Source: Escherichia phage Bp7. Taken from it: a DNA stretch of 64,000 nt. A program made the position numbers and the translations under genes. Positions within the stretch are counted from its first letter, which is position 1. Each line of letters begins with the position of its first letter. The notes under the pieces were generated by a model. It made no database searches and had not been told where the DNA came from. It saw nothing but the letters and a program-made list of their open reading frames with translations. The DNA is taken from the sequence record NC_019500.1; one strand, 5' to 3'. This document shows, piece by piece, positions 7,846 to 61,640 of the stretch.

Positions 7846-7874
7846 GTTTACATCTCCTGCAGTCATGATACTAT
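7846..7874 (+). promoter_or_regulatory. early promoter (PeSL-type)
   Basis: GTTTAC, 17 nt spacer, TACTAT, then conserved box GATACTATAGACCTATCAACT; CTCCTGCAG/CTACAGGAG inverted repeat. Confidence 0.5.
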
Positions 7875-7901
7875 AGACCTATCAACTACAGGAGATTAAA
7901 A

Positions 7902-8345
7902 ATGACTCGTATCAACCTTACCTTAGTATCTGAATTGGCTGACCAACACTTAATGGCTGAATATCGCGAATTACCACGTGTTTTCGGTGCAGTTCGTAAG
8001 CATGTTGCTAATGGTAAACGTGTTCGTGATTTTAAAATTAGCTCTACTTTTATCCTCGGTACGGGCCATGTTACGTTCTTTTACGATAAGCTCGAGTTCT
8101 TACGTAAACGCCAAATCGAGCTTATAGCCGAATGTTTAAAACGTGGTTTTAATATCAAGGATACTACGGTCCAGGACATTAGTGACATTCCTCAGGAATT
8201 CCGTGGTGATTACATTCCTCAGGAATTCCGTGGTGATTACATTCCTCACGAAGCTTCTATCGCCATTTCACAGGCCCGTTTGGACGAAAAAATTGCACAA
8301 CGCCCTACCTGGTACAAACATTACGGTAAGGCGATTTATGCATAA
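7902..8345 (+). CDS. denV: endonuclease V, pyrimidine-dimer DNA glycosylase
   Basis: Near-identical to recalled T4 EndoV ([29 protein letters not shown]...) but 147 aa because of a 9-aa internal duplication. Confidence 0.9.
8187..8248 (+). repeat. perfect 27-bp in-frame tandem duplication inside denV
   Basis: ATTCCTCAGGAATTCCGTGGTGATTAC at 8187-8213 and 8214-8240, then partial third copy; encodes IPQEFRGDY twice. Confidence 0.9.
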
Positions 8346-8384
8346 GGGAGCAACCTGGACCTCACAATTCTGTGAGGGACTCCC
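8346..8384 (+). other. nested stem-loop element downstream of denV
   Basis: GGGAG...CCTCACA-ATTC-TGTGAGG..CTCCC; no U-tract follows. Confidence 0.35.
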
Positions 8385-8447
8385 GCCAACCTGTAATAAG
8401 GTCGAGCCCAAGTGCGGTAATGGGTAAATGCAGAAAGGGATTAATTA

Positions 8448-9035
8448 ATGTGCCAAGGAATGGCCCCACAACTTAAAAAAGAGCCAATTATGAAAACGTT
8501 TTTAACCGGTAGTTATCTATCCCTGATGAATGCTTTTGCAAACCATTCTGATGCTAGAGTAGAACACATTTGTAATAGTGGGTTTTATGTACCTGATTCA
8601 CAAACCCTGTTTAAAGAATGCTGCACCCTAAAACTTGATGGTGGACGCCAATCTGGTAAAACAAGGGCAGTATCCATTTTTGCGTCTGATTGGCTCGCAG
8701 GTGGCGGGACCGTAATTATTTTGTCTAATTGCGCCGCGTATGCTAATGTTTCGGCTGCTGCAATCCGAAAGGAATATTTTAATAACCATACAGAAAGTAT
8801 TAAGTATCGTTTGTACACTGATTCTGTTCGTAGTTTTATTGGTAATACTGCATGCAAATTCCGTGGATTATCGCTTTCACGTGTTCTGTATATAATTGAC
8901 GAGCCTGTTAAAACACCTGATATGGATAAGATTTATGATGCTCATATAAAGGTGGTGCAACATTGTTGTCATGCATCATGTGAAGAAACCAATCAAACCG
9001 CACGTCCTCTGTTCTTTGTGATAGGAATGCAATGA
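8448..9035 (+). CDS. P-loop NTPase-like protein (195 aa)
   Basis: Walker A-like GGRQSGKT and Walker B-like LYIIDE; start codon uncertain. Confidence 0.5.
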   Translation: MCQGMAPQLKKEPIMKTFLTGSYLSLMNAFANHSDARVEHICNSGFYVPDSQTLFKECCTLKLDGGRQSGKTRAVSIFASDWLAGGGTVIILSNCAAYANVSAAAIRKEYFNNHTESIKYRLYTDSVRSFIGNTACKFRGLSLSRVLYIIDEPVKTPDMDKIYDAHIKVVQHCCHASCEETNQTARPLFFVIGMQ

Positions 9036-9328
9036 TGACTGATGAAGAACTTTTTGAGTTCTGTTATTTCTCACGTAAGGTTCGAAGAGAGGACCTTACT
9101 GCAAATTTTGAATATGCTTATTTCTACCCATTGGAATATGTATTCATGACAGGGCCCTTTAAGGGCTCTCGTTTTAGATGTCATGCTCCTAGTATCCGAT
9201 TAATGAAACAGGTTCCTTACTTCACTCTCGAGTTCATCTCAGGGCCTTGTAAGGGTATTATTGCTCGTAGTCTCTTGACTTATGACCAAGAGATTCATAT
9301 GATTTCTGATTGGAAAAAATATGTCTAA
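9032..9328 (+). CDS. hypothetical protein (98 aa)
   Basis: ORF with overlapping ATGA junction. Confidence 0.5.
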   Translation: MMTDEELFEFCYFSRKVRREDLTANFEYAYFYPLEYVFMTGPFKGSRFRCHAPSIRLMKQVPYFTLEFISGPCKGIIARSLLTYDQEIHMISDWKKYV

Positions 9329-9539
9329 ATTGACAATTGAAGGTTCTGAAGAAGCTCTGAAAAGATTTGTTGAATGGCTTAATGGACCAGGTGAACAAGA
9401 CTTTCTGGAAGTCTGGGATGGCGGTCGGTGGAATGGTAAAGAAATGATTTACCCGACTACCTATATCTCCGTGCAAGGTTGGACTGAAGGCCTTCGTTTG
9501 GTAGAATATGATATCGCAACTGGCGAGGAAGTGAAATGA
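9321..9539 (+). CDS. hypothetical protein (72 aa)
   Basis: ORF with overlapping junction. Confidence 0.5.
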   Translation: MSKLTIEGSEEALKRFVEWLNGPGEQDFLEVWDGGRWNGKEMIYPTTYISVQGWTEGLRLVEYDIATGEEVK

Positions 9540-9814
9540 TTGAAGATATCAAGGGTTATAAGCCGCATACCGACGATAAAATCGGTAAAGTAAACGCTAT
9601 CAAAGATGCTGAAGTTCGTCTTGGGTTAATGTTTAAAGCTCTGGAAGAAGAACATGTTACTCATTATATGAACTTAGATACCGAAGAGGTTTCTGAACAA
9701 GAACTAGACCAGGCTCATGAACGCATCACCCAGATTCGTAATGCAATTGACCGTCTGAAAGAAGCAAGCATGTGGGCGTGTCGTTCCGTTTTCCAACCAG
9801 AAGAAAAGTACTAA
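9536..9814 (+). CDS. hypothetical protein (92 aa)
   Basis: ORF with overlapping junction. Confidence 0.5.
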   Translation: MIEDIKGYKPHTDDKIGKVNAIKDAEVRLGLMFKALEEEHVTHYMNLDTEEVSEQELDQAHERITQIRNAIDRLKEASMWACRSVFQPEEKY

Positions 9815-9818
9815 AGCA

Positions 9819-9847
9819 GTTTACATCTCCTGTAGGTATGATACTAT
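9819..9847 (+). promoter_or_regulatory. early promoter (PeSL-type)
   Basis: GTTTAC, 17 nt, TACTAT; CTCCTGTAG/CTACAGGAG perfect inverted repeat spans promoter and RBS. Confidence 0.5.
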
Positions 9848-9875
9848 AAACCTATCAACTACAGGAGATTACAAA

Positions 9876-10334
9876 ATGTCAGAAATTAATTCAGAAGTAT
9901 TCATCCGCCGCAACAAATTACGTCGTCAGTTCGAAACCGAATTCCGTGAACTGAATGCGTCCATCAAAAAAGCCGCCATTAAGAGCGGAGTCCCAGCCTT
10001 CTTTATTAAGTACTCTAATCACTTGTTGGACCGTGCTATCCAACGTGAAATCGACGAAAAATACGTTTTTGCTTTATTCAAGCAACTCCATAACCATGTT
10101 AAAGAAATTCATGAATTTTTAATCCAGGAACCTCTGCCTGATGTAGAATCCGAAATTGTCCCTGGTAAAGTGTATCGTCCATTGCGTCTCGAAATTACCG
10201 ATAAAACCTTATGGCTAGGTATGACAGTAGACCGTAAACATCCTGATAAAGGATATTCCCTTAAATGCCGTATGGCATTTGTTAACTCTAAACGTTTAGA
10301 AGGTAAAACCAGCACGAAAGTAATCTATCTTTAA
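9876..10334 (+). CDS. hypothetical protein (152 aa)
   Basis: ORF downstream of promoter with GGAG RBS. Confidence 0.55.
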   Translation: MSEINSEVFIRRNKLRRQFETEFRELNASIKKAAIKSGVPAFFIKYSNHLLDRAIQREIDEKYVFALFKQLHNHVKEIHEFLIQEPLPDVESEIVPGKVYRPLRLEITDKTLWLGMTVDRKHPDKGYSLKCRMAFVNSKRLEGKTSTKVIYL

Positions 10335-10346
10335 TAATGAGGTCTC

Positions 10347-10886
10347 ATGAAAAAAGTATTAGCCACTTTACTATTGACAGTTAGTATGTCTGCCTATAGC
10401 GTAGAGCCTACTTTCAGTAATGAACAACTCGATAATTTACATTATGCGTATGCTTTCGGTGAACAATACCAAAAGTCGGGAAAGTTCAAAGAAAACCCTA
10501 ATCAAAAAGGATTAGGATATATCATGGCCGGATTACTATGGCAGGAGTCATCAGCCGGAATTAATCAAGGTTTAAATAAAGATAAGCACCATGCTTATGG
10601 CATGTTCCAAAATTACTTGCCTACGTTAAGAAGTCGTGTTCAACAGGTAGGTTGGAAGATGTCTGATAAAGAAATAATTCGTATGGTCCAAAAACGACAG
10701 AACAGTGCCTCTTGGGCCTACATTGAACTGTCTTATTGGATTGATGTTCACAAAGGTGACCTGAGAAAAGCGATTGCTTCTTATAATGCGGGCTGGAACG
10801 TCAAAGCAGGCAGTAAATATGCTTCTGAAGTTCTAGAAAAGGCCAATTACCTAAAATCTAAAAAGATGTTTGAGGCGGTATATTAA
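10347..10886 (+). CDS. secreted lytic-transglycosylase-like protein (179 aa)
   Basis: N-terminal signal peptide; SLT-like motifs WQESSAG...GMFQ and SYNAGWN. Confidence 0.5.
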   Translation: MKKVLATLLLTVSMSAYSVEPTFSNEQLDNLHYAYAFGEQYQKSGKFKENPNQKGLGYIMAGLLWQESSAGINQGLNKDKHHAYGMFQNYLPTLRSRVQQVGWKMSDKEIIRMVQKRQNSASWAYIELSYWIDVHKGDLRKAIASYNAGWNVKAGSKYASEVLEKANYLKSKKMFEAVY

Positions 10887-11707: not shown

Positions 11708-11881
11708 CCCTAAAAACAAAGCGGAAATTATTCGACGATGGACCGAAACTCGAGTAACCAAATGCCCTATAAAAAGTCAACACAACACCGATAAATGGTA
11801 TATCGGTGAATACGTTGAATATATTTTTATAGATAAAAATAAACGTAAACAGCATGTAGAAGAATATTGCTTAAAGGTGCA

Positions 11882-12073: not shown

Positions 12074-12082
12074 GAAGGTAAT

Positions 12083-12655: not shown

Positions 12656-12662
12656 GGGTACT

Positions 12663-13685: not shown

Positions 13686-13701
13686 CGTTAGAATAATCAA
13701 A

Positions 13702-13730
13702 GGTCTCACTTCGGTGGGACCTTTTTTTTT
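13702..13730 (+). terminator. rho-independent terminator
   Basis: GGTCTCAC-TTCG-GTGGGACC followed by T9. Confidence 0.7.
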
Positions 13731-13739
13731 CGTTTAGGT

Positions 13740-13768
13740 GTTTACATCCTCTAGGAACGTGATACTAT
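13740..13768 (+). promoter_or_regulatory. early promoter (PeSL-type)
   Basis: GTTTAC, 17 nt, TACTAT plus conserved GATACTATAGACCTATCAACT box. Confidence 0.5.
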
Positions 13769-13796
13769 AGACCTATCAACTAATGAGGAGAACAAA

Positions 13797-14033
13797 ATGA
13801 AACTTACAAGTACTACGGTTTCATTAGAATATGAAATCAACGGTCGTATCCTTGAGATTAAGATATTCGACGACCGAAGTATCTTTGCCGATTATCGAGG
13901 ATACAGAATTCGTCTAGAAAAGGACGAGCTCAAGGAACCGTGGCTCCTTAAAGACACATTAAAGGGATGTGGATGTAAACTGAAAACCACCCAAGCCCAA
14001 GAATTAATTTCTACTATCAACAAATACTGGTGA
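13797..14033 (+). CDS. hypothetical protein (78 aa)
   Basis: ORF with GAGGAG RBS. Confidence 0.55.
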   Translation: MKLTSTTVSLEYEINGRILEIKIFDDRSIFADYRGYRIRLEKDELKEPWLLKDTLKGCGCKLKTTQAQELISTINKYW

Positions 14034-16579: not shown

Positions 16580-16582
16580 TAA

Positions 16583-16602
16583 AAGGCCTTCGGGCCTTTT
16601 TT
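16583..16602 (+). terminator. rho-independent terminator
   Basis: AGGCC-TTCG-GGCCT followed by TTTTTT. Confidence 0.7.
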
Positions 16603-16622
16603 GGGTTTAGTGCAAAAAAGAG

Positions 16623-16650
16623 TTTACACTCTCGTAGAGCATGTTATTAT
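16623..16650 (+). promoter_or_regulatory. early promoter
   Basis: GTTTAC, 16 nt, TATTAT, then GGACCTATCAA box variant. Confidence 0.45.
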
Positions 16651-16687
16651 GGACCTATCAAATCTACTGAGTGAAATGGAGAATATA

Positions 16688-17668
16688 ATGTTAACTATCA
16701 AAATCAACAAAGGTATCTATCGCGGTAATGTAATCTCTGGTACGTTCATGAGTTCAGGTAAAACCTGGTTCCCTAATAAAATTCATGAATCCGAAGCTCA
16801 CCTAGGTGATGGCAAGGTATTCGTACAGATTGATGGTGTTGAACGTGGTGTATGGGTGTTCAAATGTGATATCGAAACCGAAGGTGCTGGAGCTCCTGCA
16901 ATGGTTACTGAATCCGCTGAAGAAATGAAACATCGCATTAACAAACGTTTTAAAGTAATGAACATGATGACTAATGGAATCATCGATGGTAAAATTCGTT
17001 CCCTTATCATCTCTGGTGCCGCAGGTATTGGTAAAACGTATTCTTTGGATAAAGCATTACAGAATGCCCACGAAAATGAAACTATCGAATATAAATCAAT
17101 CAACGGAAAGATTAGTGGAATCGGTCTTTACGAGCAGCTTTGGAATAACCGCGGCCCTAATAGTGTTCTTCTTATCGATGATGTTGATGTATTCTCTGAT
17201 ATGGATATCCTGAACCTTCTGAAAGCGGCATTGGATACCGGTGAAAAACGTAAGGTGTGCTGGAGCACTTCAAGTTCTTACCTCGATGATAAAAATATCG
17301 ATAAAGAATTCGAATACGAAGGCACCATCGTGTTCATCACCAACGTTGATATTGACCGTGAATTAGAGCGTGGAACTAAACTTGCTCCACACCTCCAGGC
17401 TTTAGTATCTCGTTCAGTTTACTTAGACCTCGGAGTTCACTCGAACGAAGAGATTATGGTTCGTGTTGAAGACGTTATCCTGTCCACTGATATGATGCAA
17501 AACCGTGGTCTGACTGACGCCGAGACTTACCAAGCTTTAGCATGGATGAAGGCTAATGTATCTCGTCTTCGTAACGTATCATTACGTACAGCTCTTTATC
17601 TGGCGGATTTCATTGCCACCGATAAAAATGACTGGGGTGAAATCTCTGAAGTTACACTTCTGAAATAA
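16688..17668 (+). CDS. AAA/P-loop ATPase (326 aa)
   Basis: Walker A GAAGIGKT, Walker B LLIDDVD; start ATG 16688 after GGAG. Confidence 0.6.
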   Translation: MLTIKINKGIYRGNVISGTFMSSGKTWFPNKIHESEAHLGDGKVFVQIDGVERGVWVFKCDIETEGAGAPAMVTESAEEMKHRINKRFKVMNMMTNGIIDGKIRSLIISGAAGIGKTYSLDKALQNAHENETIEYKSINGKISGIGLYEQLWNNRGPNSVLLIDDVDVFSDMDILNLLKAALDTGEKRKVCWSTSSSYLDDKNIDKEFEYEGTIVFITNVDIDRELERGTKLAPHLQALVSRSVYLDLGVHSNEEIMVRVEDVILSTDMMQNRGLTDAETYQALAWMKANVSRLRNVSLRTALYLADFIATDKNDWGEISEVTLLK

Positions 17669-18032: not shown

Positions 18033-18061
18033 GTTTACATCTCCAGTAGAAATGATACTAC
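18033..18061 (+). promoter_or_regulatory. early promoter (PeSL-type variant)
   Basis: GTTTAC, 17 nt, TACTAC; CTCCAGTAG/CTACTGGAG inverted repeat with compensatory changes. Confidence 0.45.
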
Positions 18062-18087
18062 AGACATATCAACTACTGGAGGTTATC

Positions 18088-18582
18088 ATGAACGCTAAAG
18101 ATATTTTTTCACTGATTAATTTCAACAACGGTAATTTCAAATCTGAAAAACAAAGCAAGTTCTTTAACGACGTTGCTTGTGGTAATGAGATTACTGTATC
18201 TGGAGGAGAGATTTACAAAAGCCGTTGGAACTGGATTGTTATCATCGATTCAGTTGGTATTGTAGAGCTCTATAAAAACACCAACAAAAAACGTACTCTT
18301 CACTGGAGTCGTGAAACCAATCAAGCTTATCAAGCTGAACGTAACAAACGTTTAATGCCTACCGAATCCGACCTGGCAAACGTTAAATCTGATATCGCTT
18401 ATTTCGATAATCTGATTGCTGAACAACAAGCTGTTATTGATAAGTTTGACGAAATCAAAGCTTGTAAAGAGATTCCTGAATTCATGCGGGAATCAGTAAA
18501 CGAACAGTACGCCCTCACTTCAGGTCGATCAATAGTGCGAACCCCTGCAAGTCGAACATCTGGGAGAGCTCCGATCGCGTAG
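18088..18582 (+). CDS. hypothetical protein (164 aa); 3-prime end runs into vector-like sequence
   Basis: ATG 18088 after GGAGG; last ~18 codons are encoded by polylinker-like sequence, so the native C-terminus is probably lost. Confidence 0.45.
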   Translation: MNAKDIFSLINFNNGNFKSEKQSKFFNDVACGNEITVSGGEIYKSRWNWIVIIDSVGIVELYKNTNKKRTLHWSRETNQAYQAERNKRLMPTESDLANVKSDIAYFDNLIAEQQAVIDKFDEIKACKEIPEFMRESVNEQYALTSGRSIVRTPASRTSGRAPIA

Positions 18583-23747: not shown

Positions 23748-24563
23748 ATGCAAGATTTCGGACATTGGGCGGTATTTGAAGAAACCGATATTAAAAACCA
23801 TATTGGATTTGTATACGTAATCACTTTTGAAGATGGCAAAAAATATGTAGGTGCTAAAAAGATTTGGAAACGAATTAAAGCTGCACCTTGCACATTTAAA
23901 CGCGGCCCTAAAAAAGGATTTGAAGAATCTGATTGGAAAACCTATACCTCATCATCTAATGAACTAAACGCAATGATAGAAAAGGGTATAAGTCCTAAAG
24001 AGTATCTTATTGTAGGATGGTATCCTACTTGGGGTAAAACTCTTATGGCAGAAATGGAAATGCAATTAGCCAATGATGTTTTACGAGACCCTATGTGGCT
24101 TAACAAGCAAATTGGCGGACATTTCAACCCTAACTGCTTTGACGATTTAACCGAAGATGATATTGCAAGATGGATGGAATTTGATAAAGGGAACGAACAT
24201 GTTTCCTGGCCTATGATGTACAAAATAGGTCAGAAAACCAAATATGTTAAACCTGACGAAGTTGGCGAGTATATTAAATCCGGGTGGCAATTTGGTCGTT
24301 CTAAAACAGAAAAACATTCTGTTACCTATAATTGCTCTAAATTTACTATATGGGACTATCAAGAAAATAAAGCAGTGGAAGTTCTAAATCAAAATGAGTT
24401 TGCTCGTAATAATGATTTAAGTAGTAACCATCTAACTAGACTACTTCAAGGAACTCTCGATCTTATTAAAGATCGCTGGGGACTTCCACCAGATATTGCT
24501 CGTCAGCGTTATAAATTTCAGACGTTTCTTCAGGAACAAAATTTTTATCTAATTCCGAGTTAG
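23748..24563 (+). CDS. GIY-YIG-like homing endonuclease candidate (271 aa)
   Basis: N-terminal GFVYVITFEDGKKYVGAKK resembles the GIY-x10-YIG motif. Confidence 0.45.
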   Translation: MQDFGHWAVFEETDIKNHIGFVYVITFEDGKKYVGAKKIWKRIKAAPCTFKRGPKKGFEESDWKTYTSSSNELNAMIEKGISPKEYLIVGWYPTWGKTLMAEMEMQLANDVLRDPMWLNKQIGGHFNPNCFDDLTEDDIARWMEFDKGNEHVSWPMMYKIGQKTKYVKPDEVGEYIKSGWQFGRSKTEKHSVTYNCSKFTIWDYQENKAVEVLNQNEFARNNDLSSNHLTRLLQGTLDLIKDRWGLPPDIARQRYKFQTFLQEQNFYLIPS

Positions 24564-25752: not shown

Positions 25753-25781
25753 GTTTACTTCCTCTCCTCACGTGTTATAGT
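25753..25781 (+). promoter_or_regulatory. early promoter (PeSL-type)
   Basis: GTTTAC, 17 nt, TATAGT; CTCCTCACGTG/CACATGAGGAG inverted repeat. Confidence 0.45.
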
Positions 25782-25810
25782 CTATCCTATCAACACATGA
25801 GGAGAACATT

Positions 25811-25993
25811 ATGACTATCCAAGATAAAGAAATTAAAGCCGACCAGTATTATTTGGTAAATGGGCGTGCGGTTCGTGTAATTGCTGCTAGCGATTCAGAC
25901 GTATGGTATCGTGTACTGGACCATAGAAATATTCCAATGATGGTATGTGACCGTAGCGTGTTTTGTTCAATAGCTAAGGAAATCAAATTATGA
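25811..25993 (+). CDS. hypothetical protein (60 aa)
   Basis: ORF with GAGGAG RBS. Confidence 0.5.
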   Translation: MTIQDKEIKADQYYLVNGRAVRVIAASDSDVWYRVLDHRNIPMMVCDRSVFCSIAKEIKL

Positions 25994-27798: not shown

Positions 27799-27864
27799 TG
27801 CTTTAAAAGGGTCTTCAAATACTATGATATAATAGACCTATGATTTGAGTTATCTGAGGTAACA

Positions 27865-32591: not shown

Positions 32592-33308
32592 TTATTGAGG
32601 CTTCATTTTACAGTTATCGAAATGCCAACGATTCATATTACCGGAATTCCCTTGTTTACCACAATGAGGGCATTCTACCTTCTTTTCTGATTTTTTGCGC
32701 CCGTTAGGATTTTTCTTACAAAAAACTTTATGAGCCGCAATAACACAGGATTTTCCTGAAAGGCCGCAGAATTCACATTCCACAATTTTATAGACCATGT
32801 TTTCTAGGCCTTTCTTTATTTTTAATTTTTGCTCCTCAGATATAGAGCGGTCCACTTTATTAGGGCCTTTAGGGCAGTTATCGAAATGCCATCTGTTCAT
32901 ATTGCCTACCAATCCAGTTTTACCGCAGTGTGGACAGGTAACTCTAGGCTTTTTTAAAGCGGAAATTGACATTTTCTTTCTGGTTTCTTCCGAGAATTCT
33001 TTATCCTTTTGGACTTCTGAATTCTTACGACGAAGCCATCCAAATAATTTATTTTTAGACCTATCAGCTTTTGGTGAGCTAACTGTCATCATTCTTGCTG
33101 CATAGACTAACGATGCATTATCTGGATGGATTTTAACTAACAACTGATGAGCCAAGTAATGTTCTTCAGGTGTTAAGTCTACCAAGTTTAAAGCGTCGTC
33201 CGTTCCACCCATGCATTGTGGTATAATGTGATGACGTTCTTTATAGGTAGTTAAATTTCTATTAACTGCTCGTTGAATAAGCTTTTCGTATATTGATTTA
33301 TAATTCAT
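32592..33308 (-). CDS. HNH homing endonuclease (Mob-like)
   Basis: Minus strand; HHIIPQCMGG...N...H HNH motif plus repeated CPHCGK...NMNRWHFDNC zinc-binding modules; ATG 33308 after AAGGA. Confidence 0.8.
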   Translation of the reverse strand: MNYKSIYEKLIQRAVNRNLTTYKERHHIIPQCMGGTDDALNLVDLTPEEHYLAHQLLVKIHPDNASLVYAARMMTVSSPKADRSKNKLFGWLRRKNSEVQKDKEFSEETRKKMSISALKKPRVTCPHCGKTGLVGNMNRWHFDNCPKGPNKVDRSISEEQKLKIKKGLENMVYKIVECEFCGLSGKSCVIAAHKVFCKKNPNGRKKSEKKVECPHCGKQGNSGNMNRWHFDNCKMKPQ

Positions 33309-33351
33309 TATCAAATCCTTATTTGATACAGCGACCGATAAAGATATTTAT

Positions 33352-40238: not shown

Positions 40239-40268
40239 GTTTACATACCACAAGGAACGTGGTAGTAT
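40239..40268 (+). promoter_or_regulatory. early promoter
   Basis: GTTTAC, 18 nt, TAGTAT, then CCTATCAACT box. Confidence 0.45.
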
Positions 40269-40298
40269 CCTTCCTATCAACTACATGAGGAAATTACA

Positions 40299-40535
40299 AT
40301 GGAAGCTTTAATCGTTAGTGCTGGTGTTTTAGGATTCGGTTCTCTGGTTATTATGTTCATCGGTTACTTTTTACCATGGATTCTGGCTCTTCTGCGAGGC
40401 ACTCGTAGTAATGTCGGAATTTTCTTCCTTAATCTCCTGTTAGGCTGGACGATGATTGGTTGGGTAGTGGCTTTAATCTGGGCCATCGTCGCTGAACGTA
40501 AATCAAACGCTCAAATCATTATTGTTAAACAATGA
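40299..40535 (+). CDS. imm: immunity (superinfection exclusion) membrane protein Imm candidate
   Basis: 78 aa, two transmembrane helices, directly downstream of gene 43 as in T4. Confidence 0.7.
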   Translation: MEALIVSAGVLGFGSLVIMFIGYFLPWILALLRGTRSNVGIFFLNLLLGWTMIGWVVALIWAIVAERKSNAQIIIVKQ

Positions 40536-48393: not shown

Positions 48394-48413
48394 GGAGCTT
48401 CGGCTCCTTTTTT
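48394..48413 (+). terminator. rho-independent terminator
   Basis: GGAGC-TTCG-GCTCC followed by TTTTTT. Confidence 0.75.
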
Positions 48414-48422
48414 GTTTTAAGG

Positions 48423-48451
48423 GTTTACATCTCCTGTAGGCGTGATACTAT
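48423..48451 (+). promoter_or_regulatory. early promoter (PeSL-type)
   Basis: GTTTAC, 17 nt, TACTAT plus GATACTATAGACCTATCAACT box. Confidence 0.5.
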
Positions 48452-48475
48452 AGACCTATCAACTTGGAGAACAAA

Positions 48476-48793
48476 ATGAAAACCATCGACTGTAAAGCAG
48501 AATACAAAGTATATTATCACGGAAGTTGTAGTGTCGCTAATATCGGTAATATGCTTTGTCCTCCTGAGGAAACAGGAGTTCTGTCTGAAACCGGTCGTAA
48601 GAAAAACCTAAATCGTGTGTTCTTTACTGAAGATATCGGTTTGGCTAAGATTTATGCTGGACGTGCAGCTCGTTCAGTGGGAGGAGAACCTCGTCTTTAT
48701 CGTGTAATTGCTCCGGTAGATGTGGTTTGTTTAAATGATACTAAAGGCGCTACGGTTTATCATGCTGAATGGGCCTTCTGTGAGGAAATCTAA
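48476..48793 (+). CDS. hypothetical protein (105 aa)
   Basis: ATG 48476 after GGAG; Cys/His-containing. Confidence 0.5.
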   Translation: MKTIDCKAEYKVYYHGSCSVANIGNMLCPPEETGVLSETGRKKNLNRVFFTEDIGLAKIYAGRAARSVGGEPRLYRVIAPVDVVCLNDTKGATVYHAEWAFCEEI

Positions 48794-49370: not shown

Positions 49371-49400
49371 GTTTACAACGGTCTATGGTAGTGATACTAT
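49371..49400 (+). promoter_or_regulatory. early promoter (PeSL-type)
   Basis: GTTTAC, 18 nt, TACTAT, GGACCTATCAACT box. Confidence 0.45.
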
Positions 49401-49428
49401 GGACCTATCAACTACCGAGGAGAACATT

Positions 49429-49722
49429 ATGAAAAAGTTATTAATCGCAGCAATCCTTACAGTAGCATCATGTGGCACAGCTCCAGTTACGGCTGGATTG
49501 GATAAAGACCTGTGTGAATGGTCTATGACTGCAGACCAAGAATCAGTCGAACATCAGATTTATGCCGATATCATGAACATCACTAAACGCGACCGCCCTG
49601 ATATGGTTAAAGAAGTGTCAGACCAATTGGCTTCAAGCGGTGTTATGCAATATAACTATGTTTTGTATTGCGATGCCAATTTCGATAACAAAAATATCGT
49701 TAAAGAGGTGACAGGTGAATAA
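49429..49722 (+). CDS. putative lipoprotein (97 aa)
   Basis: Signal peptide with lipobox-like VASC. Confidence 0.5.
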   Translation: MKKLLIAAILTVASCGTAPVTAGLDKDLCEWSMTADQESVEHQIYADIMNITKRDRPDMVKEVSDQLASSGVMQYNYVLYCDANFDNKNIVKEVTGE

Positions 49723-53444: not shown

Positions 53445-53450
53445 TTATAA

Positions 53451-53472
53451 GGAACCTTCGGGTTCCTTTTTT
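53451..53472 (+). terminator. rho-independent terminator
   Basis: GGAACC-TTCG-GGTTCC followed by TTTTTT. Confidence 0.75.
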
Positions 53473-53538
53473 GGTTTTAAGGGTTTACTTTCTAGGAAGG
53501 CCGTGTTAAGATGGTCTTATCTTATAGAGGAGAACACT

Positions 53539-53736
53539 ATGTTAAATCGTTGGATTAAACCTAATAATGCAGTAGGTGCTTTGATTGCTCAAGAAGTTTC
53601 GCTTAAATACGGGTTAGGGTATCATGACGATGTTATTACGCATTCTTTTATGATGTATGAAGATAATTCTGTAGAATTTAATGCAGAAATCCGCTTAGAC
53701 AATGGCGATGTAAAATTTGTGAGAGGTTTCCTATGA
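53539..53736 (+). CDS. hypothetical protein (65 aa)
   Basis: ATG 53539 after GAGGAGAACACT. Confidence 0.45.
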   Translation: MLNRWIKPNNAVGALIAQEVSLKYGLGYHDDVITHSFMMYEDNSVEFNAEIRLDNGDVKFVRGFL

Positions 53737-55144: not shown

Positions 55145-55714
55145 ATGAACATCGAACAAAAATGTCTTTATCAAGACCGAATCAATTCCAAATTCTCAAA
55201 ACACGAACAGAATCTTTTAGAAAAATGTCTGGATGCTAAAAAAGACCCTAACTTCCATTACGACCTTGACAAACTGGTTCGCAAGCATGTTACTTCAGCG
55301 GTTCCAGTAGAGTTGTATCGTGGGATTACCACCAGAGAACTTGAGCAATTAGAGCTCCTTTCAGTAGGGTGTCAATGGTCTCCTGGTCGAGTTACTTCTT
55401 TTAGTACACAATACTCTCAGGCTCGTCAGTTCGCAGGGGCGTGGGAATATGGAACCAAAACCATTTTAAGTCTCAGGAATGCACCGTTCATTTTCGACTA
55501 CTACAACCATGCTATAGACCTTGTTCTTGCAGGGAATGTAGACGCCCTTGAAATTGATGAAACTCGTATTGACCTCTATGATATGGTCGAAACTGAATGT
55601 GAGTTCATGGTCTCTAGCCAATCGCGATTTGAGATTGTTGCAATCGAAACCGTCAAAAGAGACCCGTATGAAATCGAGTACAAAACAATTCATTTAAAAA
55701 TGTTGGATTTTTAG
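55145..55714 (+). CDS. ADP-ribosyltransferase, ModA/ModB family
   Basis: 189 aa; R-S-E ART motifs (LYRG, SFSTQ, EFMVSSQ); position near dda as in T4. Confidence 0.65.
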   Translation: MNIEQKCLYQDRINSKFSKHEQNLLEKCLDAKKDPNFHYDLDKLVRKHVTSAVPVELYRGITTRELEQLELLSVGCQWSPGRVTSFSTQYSQARQFAGAWEYGTKTILSLRNAPFIFDYYNHAIDLVLAGNVDALEIDETRIDLYDMVETECEFMVSSQSRFEIVAIETVKRDPYEIEYKTIHLKMLDF

Positions 55715-55768
55715 TTTACAAGCAAGGATGCTTGTGGTACTATCTTTCTATCAACTGAGGAGAATAAT

Positions 55769-56383
55769 ATGTTATATCCAAGCCACCGATTATCAGAGTT
55801 CTATGACAATGTTAAGTGTGATGATTTCCGTGAAAACATCCAGTGCGAAATCAACCAGCAGTATTCTGATTTAGAACAGAGTACCCTCTGGCAGTGCATG
55901 GAAAATAAACCAGATTGTATCCAGGAAACTCTGAACAAAATTATTCGTAAGAACCTGACTTCTGTAGTGCCTGATAAGCTCTATCGAGGCATATCTAAAA
56001 AGACTATGAAGTATCTAGAGTCCACAATGTGTGTAGGTGCGGTAATTGAATTCGACCGCGTGATGAGCTTCTCTAAAGACTTCAACGTGGCAAGGAATTT
56101 CGCGTCTTATAACTTCTACGGCACATTTAATATCTTTTGTATTAATGATGCACCATTTGTGTACAATTATCAGGAAGAAATCTTTAAAATGTTATGTGCC
56201 GCGCCCCCTGAAGAGTTCCCAGGTGCATTTCCTGAATCTACCCGTGTAGCAAACTTACAATTAATCAATGATGAAGATGAGATGATGTTCCCTGCGGGAA
56301 CTACGCTGCGCGTAGACTCTATTGAGAGAAATCCTAAATGGAATAATTACACCATTTGGAATCTTTCCGTTCTTTCTTACTGA
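55769..56383 (+). CDS. ADP-ribosyltransferase, ModA/ModB family (paralog)
   Basis: 204 aa; LYRG, MSFSKD, EMMFPAGT motifs; tandem paralog of 55145-55714. Confidence 0.65.
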   Translation: MLYPSHRLSEFYDNVKCDDFRENIQCEINQQYSDLEQSTLWQCMENKPDCIQETLNKIIRKNLTSVVPDKLYRGISKKTMKYLESTMCVGAVIEFDRVMSFSKDFNVARNFASYNFYGTFNIFCINDAPFVYNYQEEIFKMLCAAPPEEFPGAFPESTRVANLQLINDEDEMMFPAGTTLRVDSIERNPKWNNYTIWNLSVLSY

Positions 56384-56452: not shown

Positions 56453-56481
56453 GTTTACTTTACCGAGCAACATGATACTAT
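56453..56481 (+). promoter_or_regulatory. early promoter (PeSL-type)
   Basis: GTTTAC, 17 nt, TACTAT plus GATACTATAGACCTATCA box. Confidence 0.5.
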
Positions 56482-56521
56482 AGACCTATCAGCTAATCGT
56501 CCGTAAGATGAGAAAAATATT

Positions 56522-57187
56522 ATGCCTACTATTAAAACTAACGATGAATTTGAGTTAAAGGTTTACAAACGTCGCGAACACACTAAAGCCTCTGCCAAAA
56601 AACGTGGTAAGGACTTTAACCTGTCTAGTAAGTACGTTCGTAGACTTCTTGAACAAAAAGTGTGTGCATATTCAGGCGAGCGCTTTGATGAGAATTCAGA
56701 TAAAGATAAGATTTCGTTTGAACGCTTTAACAACGATATAGGTTATATCGAAGGTAATGTAATCCCGGTTAAAGTTAAGTACAACGGGTTGCGAGCTGAT
56801 TTGTCTTTAGATGAATTGAAACGTGCACAGACTCGTTTAGCGTCCCGTATTTCAGGTGGTTCTAAAATGCCTAATAGTTTTAAAGTTACCCCAGATAATT
56901 ATTATAAAATTCGTAAAATAGTTAAAAATATTAAAGATACCCAAAGAGGTCTTAAAAAGCGTGAAAAACGTCTTAAGGACCTTATTAAATCAGGAGCCAC
57001 TGATAATACCCCTTCTGTCATCGCGGTTAAGGCCCGTATCCATGGTTCTAACGCTTCAATAGGTACTATGGAAAAGGGTCTCAAATCTATATTGGTGGGC
57101 CTGATTGGCGTGTCAAGTTTAAATTGTCTGAAGCAGAAACGCGTTACTATATGTATGATAAAATTATTCAAGGTCTGGAGCGTTTAG
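56522..57187 (+). CDS. endonuclease-VII/HNH-like domain protein, possibly degenerate (221 aa)
   Basis: N-terminal KKRGKDFNLS...CAYSGERF...NNDIGYIEGNV resembles Endonuclease_7-type domains but lacks obvious catalytic His. Confidence 0.4.
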   Translation: MPTIKTNDEFELKVYKRREHTKASAKKRGKDFNLSSKYVRRLLEQKVCAYSGERFDENSDKDKISFERFNNDIGYIEGNVIPVKVKYNGLRADLSLDELKRAQTRLASRISGGSKMPNSFKVTPDNYYKIRKIVKNIKDTQRGLKKREKRLKDLIKSGATDNTPSVIAVKARIHGSNASIGTMEKGLKSILVGLIGVSSLNCLKQKRVTICMIKLFKVWSV

Positions 57188-57274
57188 AACACCTTTCTTT
57201 TATTGACAAAATGAAGTTGAAAAAAGGTCTTCCGCTGAATGCTTCAATTTTTTCACTGATTAGAGGTTAACGTG

Positions 57275-57571: not shown

Positions 57572-58899
57572 TTACATTTGAAGACTTGAACAACGGCCAG
57601 AGGACGGCCTTTAAAGAAATCATTGAAGCTATTAAACGACGTAAGGGCGAATGGATTACATTGAATGGTCCGGCCGGTACAGGTAAAACAACCCTTACCA
57701 AATTTATTCTTGACCATCTAGTCAAGAATGGTGAACTCGGAGTTATTTTGACTGCACCCACTCATGCGGCCAAAAAGGTGTTGTCGAAACTCGCAGGTCA
57801 AGAAGCATCAACAATTCACAGAATTCTAAAGATTAACCCTACTACATACGAAGACCAGGACATCTTTGAACAACGCGAAGCTCCTGACTTGAGCAAATGC
57901 AATGTGTTAGTTGTTGATGAAGGCTCGATGATTGATGGTAAGTTGTTTAAGATTATTGAATCTTCCGTGCCACCATGGTGTACTGTATTAGGGATTGGCG
58001 ACAGAGCTCAGCTACAACCGGTAGAACCTGGCTGTGATGGTAGTCCGCAGTTATCTCCGTTCTTTACTCATCCAAAAATCAAACAATTACATTTGACTGA
58101 AGTGATGCGTAGTAATGCTCCTATCATTGAGGTGGCTACTGAAATCCGTAATGGTGGATGGTTTAGAGATTGTATATTCGAAGACCACGGTGTCCATGGT
58201 TTTAAATCTCAGACTGCTTTAAAAGATTTTATGATGAATTATTTTTCCATTGTAAAAGATGCTGATGCTCTGTTTGAGAATAGGATGTTTGCTTATACAA
58301 ATAAATCGGTTGAAAAGCTGAATAGCATTATTCGTAAAAAGCTTTATGAAACCGATGCACCTTATATCAAGGGTGAAATCCTAGTAATGCAAGAGCCTTT
58401 TATGAAGGAACTTGAATACGATGGTAAGAAATTCTCTGAAACCATTTTTAATAACGGTCAAATGGTTCGTATTCTGGATGTGAACCATACCTCATTGTTT
58501 TTGTCTGCTAAGGATGTAGGCACTCGTCAAATGATTAATTACTGGGACCTGCAAGTAGAATCTGTTGATGAAGACGATGAGTACTATGTAGAGCATTTAA
58601 AGGTTATCGATGAGACTTCGGTCGAGAAGTTCCATTATTTCTTGGCTAAGGTTGCTACTGAGTACAAAGCCATGCGTGGTAGTGGTAAGAAACCTAAGTG
58701 GGCTGATTTCTGGAAAGCCAAGCGAATGTTCAGTAAGGTTCGAGCTCTTCCAGTGAGCACTGTTCATAAATCCCAAGGACTTACAGTCCAAAACAGCTTC
58801 ATCTATACTCCGTGTATGCACATGGCTGATGCGAATTTAGCTTCACAGCTGGCTTATGTTAGTATTACGCGTGCTCGTACCGACGCTTACTACGTTTGA
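57568..58899 (+). CDS. dda: SF1 DNA helicase Dda
   Basis: 443 aa; Walker A GPAGTGKTT, Walker B VDEGSM; length and context as T4 Dda. Confidence 0.9.
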   Translation: MITFEDLNNGQRTAFKEIIEAIKRRKGEWITLNGPAGTGKTTLTKFILDHLVKNGELGVILTAPTHAAKKVLSKLAGQEASTIHRILKINPTTYEDQDIFEQREAPDLSKCNVLVVDEGSMIDGKLFKIIESSVPPWCTVLGIGDRAQLQPVEPGCDGSPQLSPFFTHPKIKQLHLTEVMRSNAPIIEVATEIRNGGWFRDCIFEDHGVHGFKSQTALKDFMMNYFSIVKDADALFENRMFAYTNKSVEKLNSIIRKKLYETDAPYIKGEILVMQEPFMKELEYDGKKFSETIFNNGQMVRILDVNHTSLFLSAKDVGTRQMINYWDLQVESVDEDDEYYVEHLKVIDETSVEKFHYFLAKVATEYKAMRGSGKKPKWADFWKAKRMFSKVRALPVSTVHKSQGLTVQNSFIYTPCMHMADANLASQLAYVSITRARTDAYYV

Positions 58900-58906
58900 G
58901 GAAAAT

Positions 58907-59146
58907 ATGATTAAAGTAACTAAAGACCAATTTTATAAGTTGAAATTTGAAACCGAATATATTATTAAGGTCGACCAAGACGATACAAATATTCGTGGCA
59001 AGGCCCATAAGGTCTTGCATTCTCTTAAAGAGATTGAATACGATTTTATTGCAATACAGCGTCTAATGGACGACAATATCTCTTCGGTTTATATTGAAGA
59101 CTACATCGTTGGCCAAATCCGAGACCTTATGAGGTATGTTAAATGA
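58907..59146 (+). CDS. hypothetical protein (79 aa), dda.1 position
   Basis: ATG 58907 after TGAGGAAAAT. Confidence 0.5.
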   Translation: MIKVTKDQFYKLKFETEYIIKVDQDDTNIRGKAHKVLHSLKEIEYDFIAIQRLMDDNISSVYIEDYIVGQIRDLMRYVK

Positions 59147-59817
59147 AAGATATAATTATTGACTTCGAAACCTTTGCTACTACCCAAAATGCTGCGGTTA
59201 TCGACCTTGCAGTAATTGCTTACGACCCTAATCCAGAGGTTGTAGAAACGTTTGAAGAGCTTACTCAACGAGGCCTTCGTATTAAATTTGACCTCGCTTC
59301 TCAACGTGATAAACGTCTGTTTTCTAAAAGCACGTTGCAGTGGTGGAAAGAGCAAGGGCCTGAAGCACGTAAAAACCTGGCCCCATCCGAAATTGATGTG
59401 AGCACTTCTATCGGCCTTGGTAATTTCCTGGAATACTGCCGTAAAAACGAAGTGGACCAATGGAAATCACAGATGTGGTGTCGTGGAATGTCATTTGACT
59501 TTCCTATCTTAGTCGACCTTATTCGCGATGCTTATCGTTCTGAAGGTGTTCCTGAGAATGAAATTGATACCAGTAAATTAGAACCGGTTAAATTCTGGAA
59601 CCAACGTGATATCCGTACGGCCATCGAAGCATATTCATTGACTCGCGGATTGAGCATGTGTCCTCTGCCTAACGGAACATTGAGTGGGTTTGTAGCCCAT
59701 GACTCCATCCATGACTGTGCCAAGGATATCTTGATGCTGAAATATGCTCAACGTTATGCCTTGGGCCTGGAAGATGTCCCTGAGAATCCTGACCCGTTAA
59801 GTGTAAAAAATCGATAA
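59143..59817 (+). CDS. dexA: exonuclease A (DnaQ-like 3-5 exonuclease)
   Basis: 224 aa; N-terminal IIDFETF DEDD exonuclease motif; position between dda and 39. Confidence 0.75.
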   Translation: MKDIIIDFETFATTQNAAVIDLAVIAYDPNPEVVETFEELTQRGLRIKFDLASQRDKRLFSKSTLQWWKEQGPEARKNLAPSEIDVSTSIGLGNFLEYCRKNEVDQWKSQMWCRGMSFDFPILVDLIRDAYRSEGVPENEIDTSKLEPVKFWNQRDIRTAIEAYSLTRGLSMCPLPNGTLSGFVAHDSIHDCAKDILMLKYAQRYALGLEDVPENPDPLSVKNR

Positions 59818-59821
59818 AAGT

Positions 59822-59850
59822 GTTTACTTCTCCTCATGACATGATATTAT
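59822..59850 (+). promoter_or_regulatory. early promoter (PeSL-type)
   Basis: GTTTAC, 17 nt, TATTAT; CTCCTCATG/CATGAGGAG inverted repeat. Confidence 0.45.
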
Positions 59851-59877
59851 CTACCCTATCAACATGAGGAGAACAAA

Positions 59878-60351
59878 ATGAAAATTTATCGAGTGGAGTC
59901 ATCGTTTAGTATCTTAGACAACAGCGATGTTATCACAATCACTCGTCATCAATGTCGCCAATTAACCCCGTATAGAGGCTCATTTGACGAATGGAGTGAA
60001 GGTTGGTTATTGGAAGTAGGTTTCGACAGACCTAATTTTAGACACCATCATACCAATAATAAAAATATTCCATTACCAAGTCAAGACGAATTGTTGGTTA
60101 AAAATTCTAATATGGTAATTAAAACCAAATTCGAACATGAAGATTATAAAGGTGTAGATAACTACATTCCAGGTTGGTTTGTCAATCTCTACCATTTTGC
60201 TTTTGCCAGCGAGTATGATATGATGCGCTGGTTCACTCGTGAAGAGCGTGCTGAATTATCTTCTAAAGGATTTTACCTTGCTGTTACGAAATACCTGAAG
60301 ATGAGTTGTCATTGGTGGCCGCCAAGTAAGGTTCCGCAAATCCCATGCTGA
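59878..60351 (+). CDS. hypothetical protein (157 aa)
   Basis: ORF with GAGGAG RBS. Confidence 0.55.
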   Translation: MKIYRVESSFSILDNSDVITITRHQCRQLTPYRGSFDEWSEGWLLEVGFDRPNFRHHHTNNKNIPLPSQDELLVKNSNMVIKTKFEHEDYKGVDNYIPGWFVNLYHFAFASEYDMMRWFTREERAELSSKGFYLAVTKYLKMSCHWWPPSKVPQIPC

Positions 60352-60493
60352 ACTCGTAGATTTATGAATGAGAACAATATGAAATTTAATTACAACCCTA
60401 AATACACCCCGAATCCAGCAGCTAAACTGATTGATTTGATGTTTTAAGCACTTATGTATGCCTGTTAAACCACTGGAAATTAAGGAACCTGCT

Positions 60494-60928
60494 ATGAATA
60501 CTCAGACTATCGAAATCGGCAAAACCTACAAACTGGTTGAACGTGAAATTAAAACTAAGGCCTTGATTTCTGGCCATAAAACTCTGACTGAGGTTTTTGG
60601 CGAAGGCGAATTTATTGTTGAAGAATTTACCAAAAGTGACTGGTTTACTAAATCTTACGTCATCCACGGCCGTCGATTAGATAATAACAAAATAGAGAAA
60701 ATCTTGGTTTATGAAGCAGAGTTCATCCTGTTCCAAGAAGTTGAAGTCGAACAAGACCCTACTGACCTGCTGTGTGCTGCTGTGTCTATCCGTCGTCCTT
60801 TTGATAATCCTATCTGTGGATGGGTAACAGACCAATGGGTTGAAGATGGGGTTGAGCTGCTGAACGTTGTACATGCTGGTGATTTTAGTGTAGTACCTCG
60901 TAGTGCAGTGGTTAATGTATTGAATTAA
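60494..60928 (+). CDS. hypothetical protein (144 aa), paralog of 61002-61568
   Basis: C-terminal GWVTDQWVEDGVELLNVVHAGDFSVVP shared with the next gene. Confidence 0.5.
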   Translation: MNTQTIEIGKTYKLVEREIKTKALISGHKTLTEVFGEGEFIVEEFTKSDWFTKSYVIHGRRLDNNKIEKILVYEAEFILFQEVEVEQDPTDLLCAAVSIRRPFDNPICGWVTDQWVEDGVELLNVVHAGDFSVVPRSAVVNVLN

Positions 60929-61001
60929 TAGTTTACTTTATCGAGGGCCATGTTATAATGGCTCTCATGGAGAATAAACCTTTAACCAAGAGAGAAAAAT
61001 T

Positions 61002-61568
61002 ATGATTACTATTTCCGATATCGGCGGTATTGTTCGTGTATCCAAAAAGTCTCGTTCAAAAGCTGCAGGCTGTTTAGTTGAAGTTGTTAGTATCCAACTT
61101 AAAGAAGGTGTCAGTGTAGAAAATTCTGAAGTAAAAGTGCGTATCATTCCTAAAAATGGTCAAACTGAAACTCAATTCGCTTATGTGCGTGCTAAATTCT
61201 TGGAATCGACTGAATTTACCGGATACATCGCTCCTGTAGTTGAAGAAGTTGAATCCCATGATGGGTATGTATGTGAAAGCAATGATATCCGTGGCGTAGT
61301 AGCTCAAGACGTTGAAACTATTGACCAATCTCATGTTGGTGTTGATTTCAAATGGAAATTAGGTAAAGGTGTCTTTTTCGTTTCACCTAAACCGTTTGAA
61401 TACAATTGCAAGTATGGTCCGACTTATGAAACCACTAGTATGTCCGGTTACATCACAGACCAATGGGTTGAAGAAGGTGTTAAGCTGTATAACATCGTGT
61501 TCCTTGGCACCTTTAAAGTAGTTCCTGAAAGTTTTATTGTTGAGTATGCTGATATTCATTTTGCATAA
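61002..61568 (+). CDS. hypothetical protein (188 aa), paralog of 60494-60928
   Basis: C-terminal GYITDQWVEEGVKLYNIVFLGTFKVVP. Confidence 0.55.
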   Translation: MITISDIGGIVRVSKKSRSKAAGCLVEVVSIQLKEGVSVENSEVKVRIIPKNGQTETQFAYVRAKFLESTEFTGYIAPVVEEVESHDGYVCESNDIRGVVAQDVETIDQSHVGVDFKWKLGKGVFFVSPKPFEYNCKYGPTYETTSMSGYITDQWVEEGVKLYNIVFLGTFKVVPESFIVEYADIHFA

Positions 61569-61640
61569 AGTTTAAAAACAGTATACAACAGGGTAGTAGT
61601 GTGATACTATTACCCTATCAACAAATGAGAGGAAAATAAA

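Follow-up and report, generated by a model that had tools for sequence, protein, structure and literature searches.

The window analyzed here is a 64,000-nucleotide stretch of Escherichia phage Bp7 (NC_019500.1), and the elements in question are the early-promoter cassettes that recur between its genes. By megablast, the window belongs to the JS98/IME08 group of T4-like coliphages in the genus Dhakavirus, with 92-98% identity in the early-gene region. The genes are on the plus strand, and the sole sizeable minus-strand gene is 32592-33314. By the IME08 annotation, the gene order in the first half is the e.8/e.6 region, denV, regB, tk, nrdC, 49, 55 and 47-46-45-44-62-regA-43; it continues with imm, uvsX, 41, sp, 61, 56, soc, mrh, modB/modA, srd, dda, dexA, motB and cef towards gene 39. 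On its sequence, the window is the classical T4 early/middle arm.

A first-pass annotation made from the letters alone had listed 12 cassettes that share promoter hexamers and a conserved box, and all 12 are genuine. The 20-nt box GATACTATAGACCTATCAAC has nine matches with ≤3 mismatches, all on the plus strand, compared to none in 100 shuffles, and GTTTAC-N15-19-TACTAT occurs seven times in the window versus 0.06 expected. Relaxed scans and an nhmmer profile bring the census to at least 18 cassettes, all on the plus strand and each directly 5′ of a gene, with -35 hexamers that start at 134, 592, 5077, 7846, 9819, 13740, 16622, 18033, 25753, 40239, 48423, 49371, 53483, 55714, 56453, 59822, 60931 and 61581. 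Those at 5077 (box at 5098), 55714, 53483, 60931, 134 and 592 were not on the earlier list, and neither was a MotA-box variant at 27812. The cassette consists of a -35 GTTTAC, a 17-18-nt spacer ending in TGn, a -10 TACTAT, AGACCTATCAAC, a Shine-Dalgarno (SD) sequence and an ATG located 22-45 nt 3′ of the -10. Only 1-12 nt separate the upstream stop codon from the -35 in the cassettes that carry a hairpin. The start-site consensus CTATCAAC follows the extended -10 TGnTACTAT. Transcription was taken to start 7 nt 3′ of the -10, a position inferred from the -10 itself, and a literature search found no genome-wide start-site dataset for T4.

Liebig and Ruger reportedly described the T4 early promoter consensus in 1989. 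The T4 denV promoter is an identical cassette, box included, and other T4 early promoters share GTTTAC, TGn, TAnnnT and CTATCAAC(TAC). The published T4 early promoter consensus (UP, -35 GTTTAC, TGn, -10) agrees with this arrangement, and there too conserved letters continue beyond the -10 (Hinton 2010, PMC2988021; Nolan 2006, PMC1524935). The early-promoter nature that had been proposed for the cassettes is borne out: they are sigma-70-type T-even early promoters, and the 20-nt box is no element of its own but their extended -10 plus start-site consensus. Exact copies of the box in IMG/VR are confined to JS98-like genomes and a few metagenomic contigs.

Each cassette was folded from the -35 to the ATG, and z scores were calculated from 200 shuffles. 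Five of the 18 cassettes, termed class A, pair the promoter spacer with the SD (folding free energy, dG, in kcal/mol).

7846..7904, plus strand, class A, denV: -35 at 7846-7851, spacer with the 5′ arm at 7852-7863, -10 at 7869-7874, predicted start ~7881, 3′ arm 7885-7896 over the SD GGAG 7891-7894, ATG 7902; dG -16.0, z -4.6
9819..9878, plus strand, class A, regB: 5′ arm 9825-9835, -10 at 9842-9847, predicted start ~9854, 3′ arm 9859-9869, SD GGAG 9864-9867, ATG 9876; perfect 11-bp helix, dG -18.9, z -4.8
18033..18090, plus strand, class A, nrdC.8: 5′ arm 18039-18049, predicted start ~18068, 3′ arm 18073-18083, ATG 18088; dG -18.2, z -3.9
25753..25813, plus strand, class A, 60-aa 55.6-like open reading frame (ORF): 5′ arm 25763-25776, predicted start ~25788, 3′ arm 25792-25805, ATG 25811; dG -21.1, z -6.1
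59822..59880, plus strand, class A, motB.2: 5′ arm 59828-59838, predicted start ~59857, 3′ arm 59863-59873, SD GGAG 59868-59871, ATG 59878; perfect 11-bp helix, dG -19.4, z -5.4

The class A stems contain 11-14 bp with dG values of -16 to -21 kcal/mol and z scores of -3.9 to -6.1, and none of the 200 shuffles was as stable. The geometry is the same in all five: the 5′ arm is in the spacer that separates the -35 from the -10, the predicted start is in a 23-30-nt loop that includes the -10, and the 3′ arm is on the SD. Compensatory arm pairs are confirmed as CTCCTGTAG/CTACAGGAG versus CTCCAGTAG/CTACTGGAG versus CTCCTCATG/CATGAGGAG, and the nrdC.8 cassette at 18033 differs from the 9819 cassette by a compensatory T>A/A>T change. 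The ORF upstream of the denV cassette is gene e, which stops at 7840.

Complementarity between the spacer and the ribosome-binding site (RBS) had been claimed for most copies. It is exact at 7846, 9819, 18033, 25753 and 59822, but a strong helix is present at only these 5 of the 12 sites listed. The cassettes at 13740, 16622 and 48423 retain a remnant of ~5 bp, those at 49371 and 61581 pair the spacer with the -10/start box, the one at 40239 pairs within the spacer, and the one at 56453 has no pairing. Across the full census, class B denotes cassettes that pair the spacer with the -10/start-site box (134, 592, 5077, 49371, 60931 and 61581), class C the hairpins in the -35/spacer or spacer/-10 region before modA and imm, and little or no hairpin is found at 13740, 16622, 48423, 53483 and 56453. 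In all classes, the 5′ arm is upstream of the predicted start, and thus only RNA arriving from upstream can fold the hairpin.

SD accessibility was calculated from the partition function, and an SD was scored as masked when its unpaired probability in read-through RNA was <0.2. The predicted SD unpaired probability is 0.00 in upstream-started RNA of all five window class A cassettes, compared to 0.32 for denV and 0.78 for the 25753 cassette in RNA from their own promoters. The four sets of orthologous cassettes gave the following values.

regB orthologues: SD unpaired probability 0.04 in read-through RNA, 0.35 in own-promoter RNA and 0.26 with shuffled upstream sequence; masked in 26 of 28 distinct cassettes
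motB.2 orthologues: 0.00 in read-through RNA, 0.60 in own-promoter RNA and 0.32 with shuffled upstream sequence; masked in 8 of 8
nrdC.8 orthologues: 0.03 in read-through RNA, 0.40 in own-promoter RNA and 0.32 with shuffled upstream sequence; masked in 8 of 9
denV orthologues: 0.07 in read-through RNA, 0.39 in own-promoter RNA and 0.29 with shuffled upstream sequence; masked in 26 of 29

The proposal that read-through RNA hides the RBS is therefore supported by prediction for class A (0.00-0.07 versus 0.35-0.60 in own-promoter RNA) but does not describe a common function of the cassettes: about half have a hairpin that never touches the SD, or none.

Conservation of the pairing was examined in 106 distinct cassettes from 42 orthologue groups at JS98-group loci. 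A 5′ arm pairs far better with its own partner than with a foreign arm (-11.4 versus -7.6 kcal/mol), and none of 20000 permutations across the 42 groups reached the observed value. T4 has class A helices at denV, regB, nrdC.8 and motB.2, with arms unrelated to those of the window except at denV. The regB loci collected from IMG/VR represent ~15 lineages, of which 10-12 use the spacer to mask the SD, and there are at least nine unrelated arm pairs; of the others, two have a class B hairpin enclosed by a short SD helix, one has class B only, and one has neither. Because the lineages differ in register and loop length, pairs were counted directly on anchored alignments instead of building a covariance model. 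In the regB alignment, anchored on TCC/GGA, 69% of the cells are standard pairs versus 59% in shuffles, and 52 cells are changed on both sides versus 24 ± 4 (0/500 shuffles for each). The covariation score is 0.263 compared to 0.125 in shuffles (0/500) and 0.05-0.11 in slid registers, and double changes occur at 9 of the 15 pairs, at positions beyond the SD core. The suggestion that arms which differ yet stay complementary mark a selected structure thus holds across lineages.

The other genes show the same behavior. The motB.2 orthologues have two arm types, and the T4-group arms are unrelated and still mask the SD. The nrdC.8 orthologues comprise two class A types and one class B lineage, and among the 29 distinct denV cassettes the arm that masks the SD/AUG is supplied by the spacer in some and by the -10/discriminator segment in others. 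Masking at denV, nrdC.8 and motB.2 is kept despite a register shift from spacer-to-SD to -10-to-SD/AUG pairing, and throughout, the 5′ arm remains on the upstream side of the predicted start. Some regB loci (L074-L076) and many denV loci (L119-L146) have a 5′ arm made of the -10 hexamer plus discriminator and a 3′ arm made of the SD plus AUG, for example TATGATGTCTTCC...GGAGGACATCATG. Internal mismatches in 55 distinct stems comprise 16 G.U and 4 A.C (p = 0.012), an excess that favors pairing of the sense strand. Taken together, the pairing between spacer and partner is selected and is kept well beyond the window in a subset of genes.

Embedded hairpins and canonical terminators exclude each other. 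Four cassettes are preceded, 9-19 nt 5′ of the -35, by an intrinsic terminator with a UUCG tetraloop and T-run.

13699-13724, intrinsic terminator upstream of the 13740 cassette
16581-16600, intrinsic terminator upstream of the 16622 cassette
~48400-48415, intrinsic terminator upstream of the 48423 cassette
~53450-53470, intrinsic terminator upstream of the 53483 cassette

These four cassettes are the ones with a weak or broken embedded hairpin. Over the 42 groups, a strong embedded hairpin is present in 0 of 11 with an upstream terminator versus 16 of 31 without one (Fisher p = 0.0027). This exclusion is expected if the hairpin handles read-through, since such a structure would be dispensable where a terminator already stops the transcripts. 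The embedded hairpins themselves are not G+C-rich hairpins with an immediate U-tract; no U-tract follows any of them, and the flanks are TATCAAC or A-rich, for example ATTAAAAATG. Rfam gave no hits at the gathering threshold in the whole window.

The best explanation, to which we assign a probability of about 0.6, is that the cassettes are early promoters and that class A, with its promoter inside a hairpin, gates translation by the origin of the transcript. The promoter units sit right after the stop codon of the preceding gene, and where no terminator lies upstream, the otherwise unconstrained spacer would hold the 5′ arm of a hairpin. The hairpin would form only in RNA started farther upstream, whether read-through early, middle or late, and never in RNA from the local promoter. 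In class A read-through RNA, the RBS, including the GGAG cut by RegB, would be locked in an 11-15-bp helix; in the promoter-proximal RNA it would be open. A class A gene would then be translated essentially only from its own early promoter, which would confine synthesis to the immediate-early burst, and the helix may also spare the long RNA from RegB cleavage. The motif, the helices, their covariation, the position of the arms relative to the -10 and the exclusion of terminators are seen in the sequences, whereas the start sites, folding in vivo and the effects on translation and RegB cleavage are inferred.

Several observations weigh against this model. Predicted SD access in own-promoter transcripts is only moderate (0.35-0.6). 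The SD of the own-promoter regB RNA from the window (9854-9910) has a predicted unpaired probability of 0.02 owing to an alternative pairing with a segment of the first 33 nt of the coding region, either an artefact of the folding or a further level of control on regB. Anchoring the regB alignment on TCC/GGA favors the helix, a bias mitigated by the controls with slid registers and shuffles. Whole cassettes do not fold with significantly different energies as sense and antisense strands (p = 0.11), and G.U and A.C mismatches are equal (4 versus 4) in the regB alignment alone. The SD is masked in only 5 of the 18 cassettes, or 8 when partial masking is counted, and classes B and C cannot act via the SD and need another explanation. 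A ribosome terminating 9-12 nt 5′ of the helix might open it, and the start sites, structures and translational effects assigned to the cassettes are predicted ones.

The rival explanations of class A are judged mainly by the 3′ arm, which tracks the SD/AUG through changes of arm sequence and register. All embedded hairpins, class A included, may be terminators, attenuators or 3′-end stabilizers of the upstream transcript, with SD pairing incidental. A stem-loop from one of the promoter-early stem-loop (PeSL) cassettes of phage RB49 cuts expression of a downstream lacZ transcriptional fusion as much as rrnB T1 does (Arbiol 2010, PMC2839356), the mutual exclusion of embedded hairpins and canonical terminators suggests equivalent roles, and hairpins of classes B and C reach no farther than the start site and so never contact the SD. 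Termination is disfavored by the A-rich flanks that lack a U-tract and by the class A loops, which at 23-30 nt with the -10 inside would make poor terminators, and it would not require a 3′ arm that follows the SD/AUG in four genes. We regard this explanation as unlikely. Hairpin opening is an established means of translational coupling in phage and operon mRNAs, and a ribosome finishing the upstream ORF could melt the 5′ arm of a class A helix to open the downstream site. The hairpin-bearing cassettes adjoin the upstream stop codon, as coupling would have it, but the 5′ arm begins 9-12 nt past the stop, a distance which, judged by known footprint sizes, a terminating ribosome would barely cover or just miss. 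This spacing is set by the -35 hexamer with no sign of tuning, and coupling leaves the promoter start inside the loop unexplained, which makes it a distinctly improbable account.

The inverted repeats could instead act on DNA, as hairpins or cruciforms for cassette recombination (mini-circles and PeSL shuffling) or as the target of a dimeric protein. PeSLs do recombine and form mini-circles (Arbiol 2010), the cassettes at 48423 and at JS98 nrdC.8 are chimeric, and 3 of the ~21 synteny breakpoints with IME08 are within cassettes. Recombination, however, needs the shared promoter core only and not the variable arms, the arms are too diverse for one DNA-binding protein, the mismatch counts point to one strand, and the 3′ arm is tied to the SD/AUG; a role in DNA is very unlikely. 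The possibility that the complementarity is a by-product, arising from the descent of duplicated cassettes and a C/T-rich spacer opposite a purine-rich SD without selection for pairing, is hardly credible. It draws on the arms shared by denV, regB and the 5′ arm of 48423 and on the 5-bp TCTCC/GGAGA remnants that exist even where a helix is not needed. It is contradicted by the double changes outside the SD core, by a regB covariation score above all 500 shuffles and all slid registers, and by the own-versus-foreign arm permutations.

The promoter motif itself is ordinary, being that of T-even early promoters and PeSL cassettes, and it is the SD-masking subset that looks new. The helix between spacer and SD is not described in the accessible reviews, PeSL papers or RegB papers, although the older T4 literature may contain an earlier mention. 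Accessible descriptions of the T4 early promoter consensus treat the spacer as unconstrained and without SD complementarity. A broader version of the transcript-of-origin model, in which a selected gate operates throughout the Tevenvirinae (T4, the JS98 group, RB69-like phages and others) at regB, denV, nrdC.8, motB.2 and other genes and shields the RegB GGAG, is tentative, with odds a little short of even. If true, temporal control would have a further, general layer that had not been described before; it would mirror the lysozyme paradigm and make up a sixth, functional PeSL subclass. T4 early regions produce overlapping polycistronic RNAs from many tandem strong promoters, and the short burst of proteins such as RegB is only partly explained at present by promoter shut-off and RegB cleavage. 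A promoter-dependent translation helix would add a simple, testable layer and would explain the conservation or covariation of promoter spacers. The PeSL concept would be refined as well, in that the stem-loop need not be a terminator, and in engineered T4-like phages or reporters the downstream gene could be misexpressed if a promoter is moved without its partner arm or an arm without its promoter.

The known systems closest in logic are the T4 e, soc, 49 and I-TevI genes and Aeh1 mobE, where an RBS-sequestering hairpin has a late promoter embedded in it (Uzan & Miller 2010, PMC3014915). In these genes, as predicted for class A, the helix hides the SD/AUG in upstream-started RNA, and the gene's own promoter is inside the hairpin and yields a transcript without the 5′ arm. 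The polarity differs: the known genes have a late promoter (TATAAATA) and are late genes kept silent on early RNA, whereas the window has early promoters and early genes that would be silent on read-through RNA. The promoters embedded before regB, denV and motB.2 are of the early sigma-70 type, not late promoters of late genes. Masking is experimentally proven for the known genes and predicted for the window. By analogy, the cassettes would work like the T4 lysozyme-type family of RBS masks without being strict members of it.

RegB connects to the cassettes through their 3′ ends. In the SDs of early genes, RegB with S1 targets GG*AGRAYARAA (Durand 2006, PMC1702504), and a GGAG held in RNA structure is shielded from RegB (PMC3014915). 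Many cassettes end in GGAGAACAAAA or GGAGAATAAAA (13740, 48423, 59822 and 5077), and the regB SD is a known RegB target. Exact matches to the RegB/S1 consensus are found in the SD regions at 13786-13796, 48466-48475, 59868-59877 and 5133-5143 (GGAGAAYAAAA), which suggests that early mRNAs with consensus-matching SDs are RegB targets. RegB sites account for the conserved 3′ end but not for the complementary spacer arm.

The remaining cassettes are as follows (dG in kcal/mol).

134..191, plus strand, class B with a diverged box: arms 140-152 and 159-171; dG about -18
592..667, plus strand, class B, e.6, GTTTAC-N18-TATAAT: arms 606-612 and 621-627
5077..5145, plus strand, class B: spacer arm 5084-5093 pairs with the -10/start box 5102-5111 and the helix ends at the predicted start minus 1; dG -15.4, z -3.1
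49371..49431, plus strand, class B, sp (spackle): two G.U pairs between arms 49380-49390 and 49395-49405; dG -15.7, z -2.0
60931..61004, plus strand, class B, motB, box diverged: arms 60943-60951 and 60958-60966; whole-cassette dG -21.5
61581..61643, plus strand, class B, cef: arms 61590-61601 and 61605-61616; dG -15.2, z -3.4
40239..40301, plus strand, class C, imm: hairpin in the spacer/-10 region 40246-40264; z -1.3
55714..55771, plus strand, class C, modA: hairpin in the -35/spacer region 55714-55740, SD unmasked (unpaired 0.27 versus 0.31); z -1.7
13740..13799, plus strand, degenerate class A: only a TCCTC/GAGGA pair; z -1.0; intrinsic terminator with T-run upstream
16622..16690, plus strand, nrdC.10 cassette: weak helix to the leader and not the SD; z -0.4; terminator upstream
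48423..48478, plus strand, chimeric cassette: 5′ arm ATCTCCTGTAG (denV/regB type) intact, 3′ arm replaced (CTTGGAGAAC); z -0.8; terminator upstream
53483..53541, plus strand, mrh.2 cassette: weak spacer-to--10 hairpin; terminator upstream
56453..56524, plus strand, srd cassette: without significant hairpin; z +0.4

The 3′ arm of class B ends at the predicted start minus 1, and class B arms covary too: in the cef cassette, the variant box TATTACCC has a matching spacer, GGGTAGTAG. Of the 18 cassettes, 13 or 14 have a hairpin, either embedded or as a terminator upstream. For classes B and C, the PeSL view of the hairpin as attenuator, terminator or 3′-end stabilizer (Arbiol 2010) remains the sole proposal. 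Two general roles were tried for the helices and rejected: an operator for a dimeric DNA-binding protein, as the arms differ completely between cassettes, and RNase III sites, as most helices have only 9-14 bp.

The first-pass annotation had likened the cassettes to the PeSL cassettes of T4-type phages (Arbiol 2010, PMC2839356; Comeau 2014, PMC4122927), and they do fit this class. Both are repeated intergenic units with an upstream stop codon, a co-oriented sigma-70-type early promoter, an associated stem-loop, an SD and an ATG start codon. The PeSL stem-loop is between the -35 and -10, over the -10, or upstream of the promoter, positions that correspond to class C, class B and the terminator-preceded cassettes of the window. 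PeSLs are tied to indels and chimeric junctions between related genomes, a trait that the cassettes of the window may share. JS98 has 'PeSL-like sequences' near g43 (Arbiol 2010, PMC2839356). What does not carry over is the proposed RBS masking, the published PeSL mechanism being a local terminator/attenuator hairpin: in all five published subclasses the stem-loop lies wholly upstream of the start site and is read as terminator or attenuator, whereas class A spans the start and pairs with the SD. The words 'ribosome' and 'translation' are absent from Arbiol 2010 (PMC2839356), and Comeau 2014 (PMC4122927) describes only upstream stem-loops for T4/PST. The promoters also differ, TTGACA...TATAAT in RB49 and the T-even GTTTAC...TACTAT in the window. 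Repeats at the T-even internal-protein (IP) locus, as cited from Repoila et al. 1994 in PMC2839356, are likewise early-promoter based and flank shuffled small genes near e and denV; in that citation they are described as recombination motifs.

Evidence for cassette shuffling is present but modest. The cassettes cover ~2% of the window and contain 3 of the ~21 synteny breakpoints with IME08, among them 7825-7899 (denV) and 13781-13802. The denV gene directly follows e here; IME08 (compared over L038 20826-21194) has ipII between them, and T4 has ipIII and ipII. The boundary of the ipII indel is exactly in the denV cassette, at the classical hypervariable internal-protein locus. The 48423 chimera is consistent with recombination inside the shared box. 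In the JS98 nrdC.8 cassette (L107/L034), the 5′ arm CTCCATTAG of another cassette stands opposite the cassette's own 3′ arm CTACTGGAG, with a pairing energy of -12.1 versus -18.3 kcal/mol; this chimera looks like a recent recombination in the shared promoter core that is not yet compensated. Several of the other breakpoints are homing endonuclease insertions. Homing-endonuclease-like insertions absent from IME08 are located at 23748-24563 (plus strand), 62362-63042 (plus strand) and 32592-33314 (minus strand); in the same order, they encode SegE of the GIY-YIG type (Pfam E 2.5e-34), a NUMOD3 protein and, on the minus strand, an ORF whose HNH/zinc-ribbon hits are weak. Thus, several synteny breaks are unrelated to the promoter cassettes.

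TGCTTTA in CTTTAAAC-type spacers was rejected as a MotA box on account of its position at ~-25 instead of -30, the exception being the variant at 27812. This element, upstream of gene 55 (27805-27850), has a MotA-box-like TGCTTTA, a TATAAT -10, the start-site box AGACCTAT and GGGTCT/AGACCT complementarity, which suggests a counterpart of the early cassettes built on a middle promoter ('PmSL').

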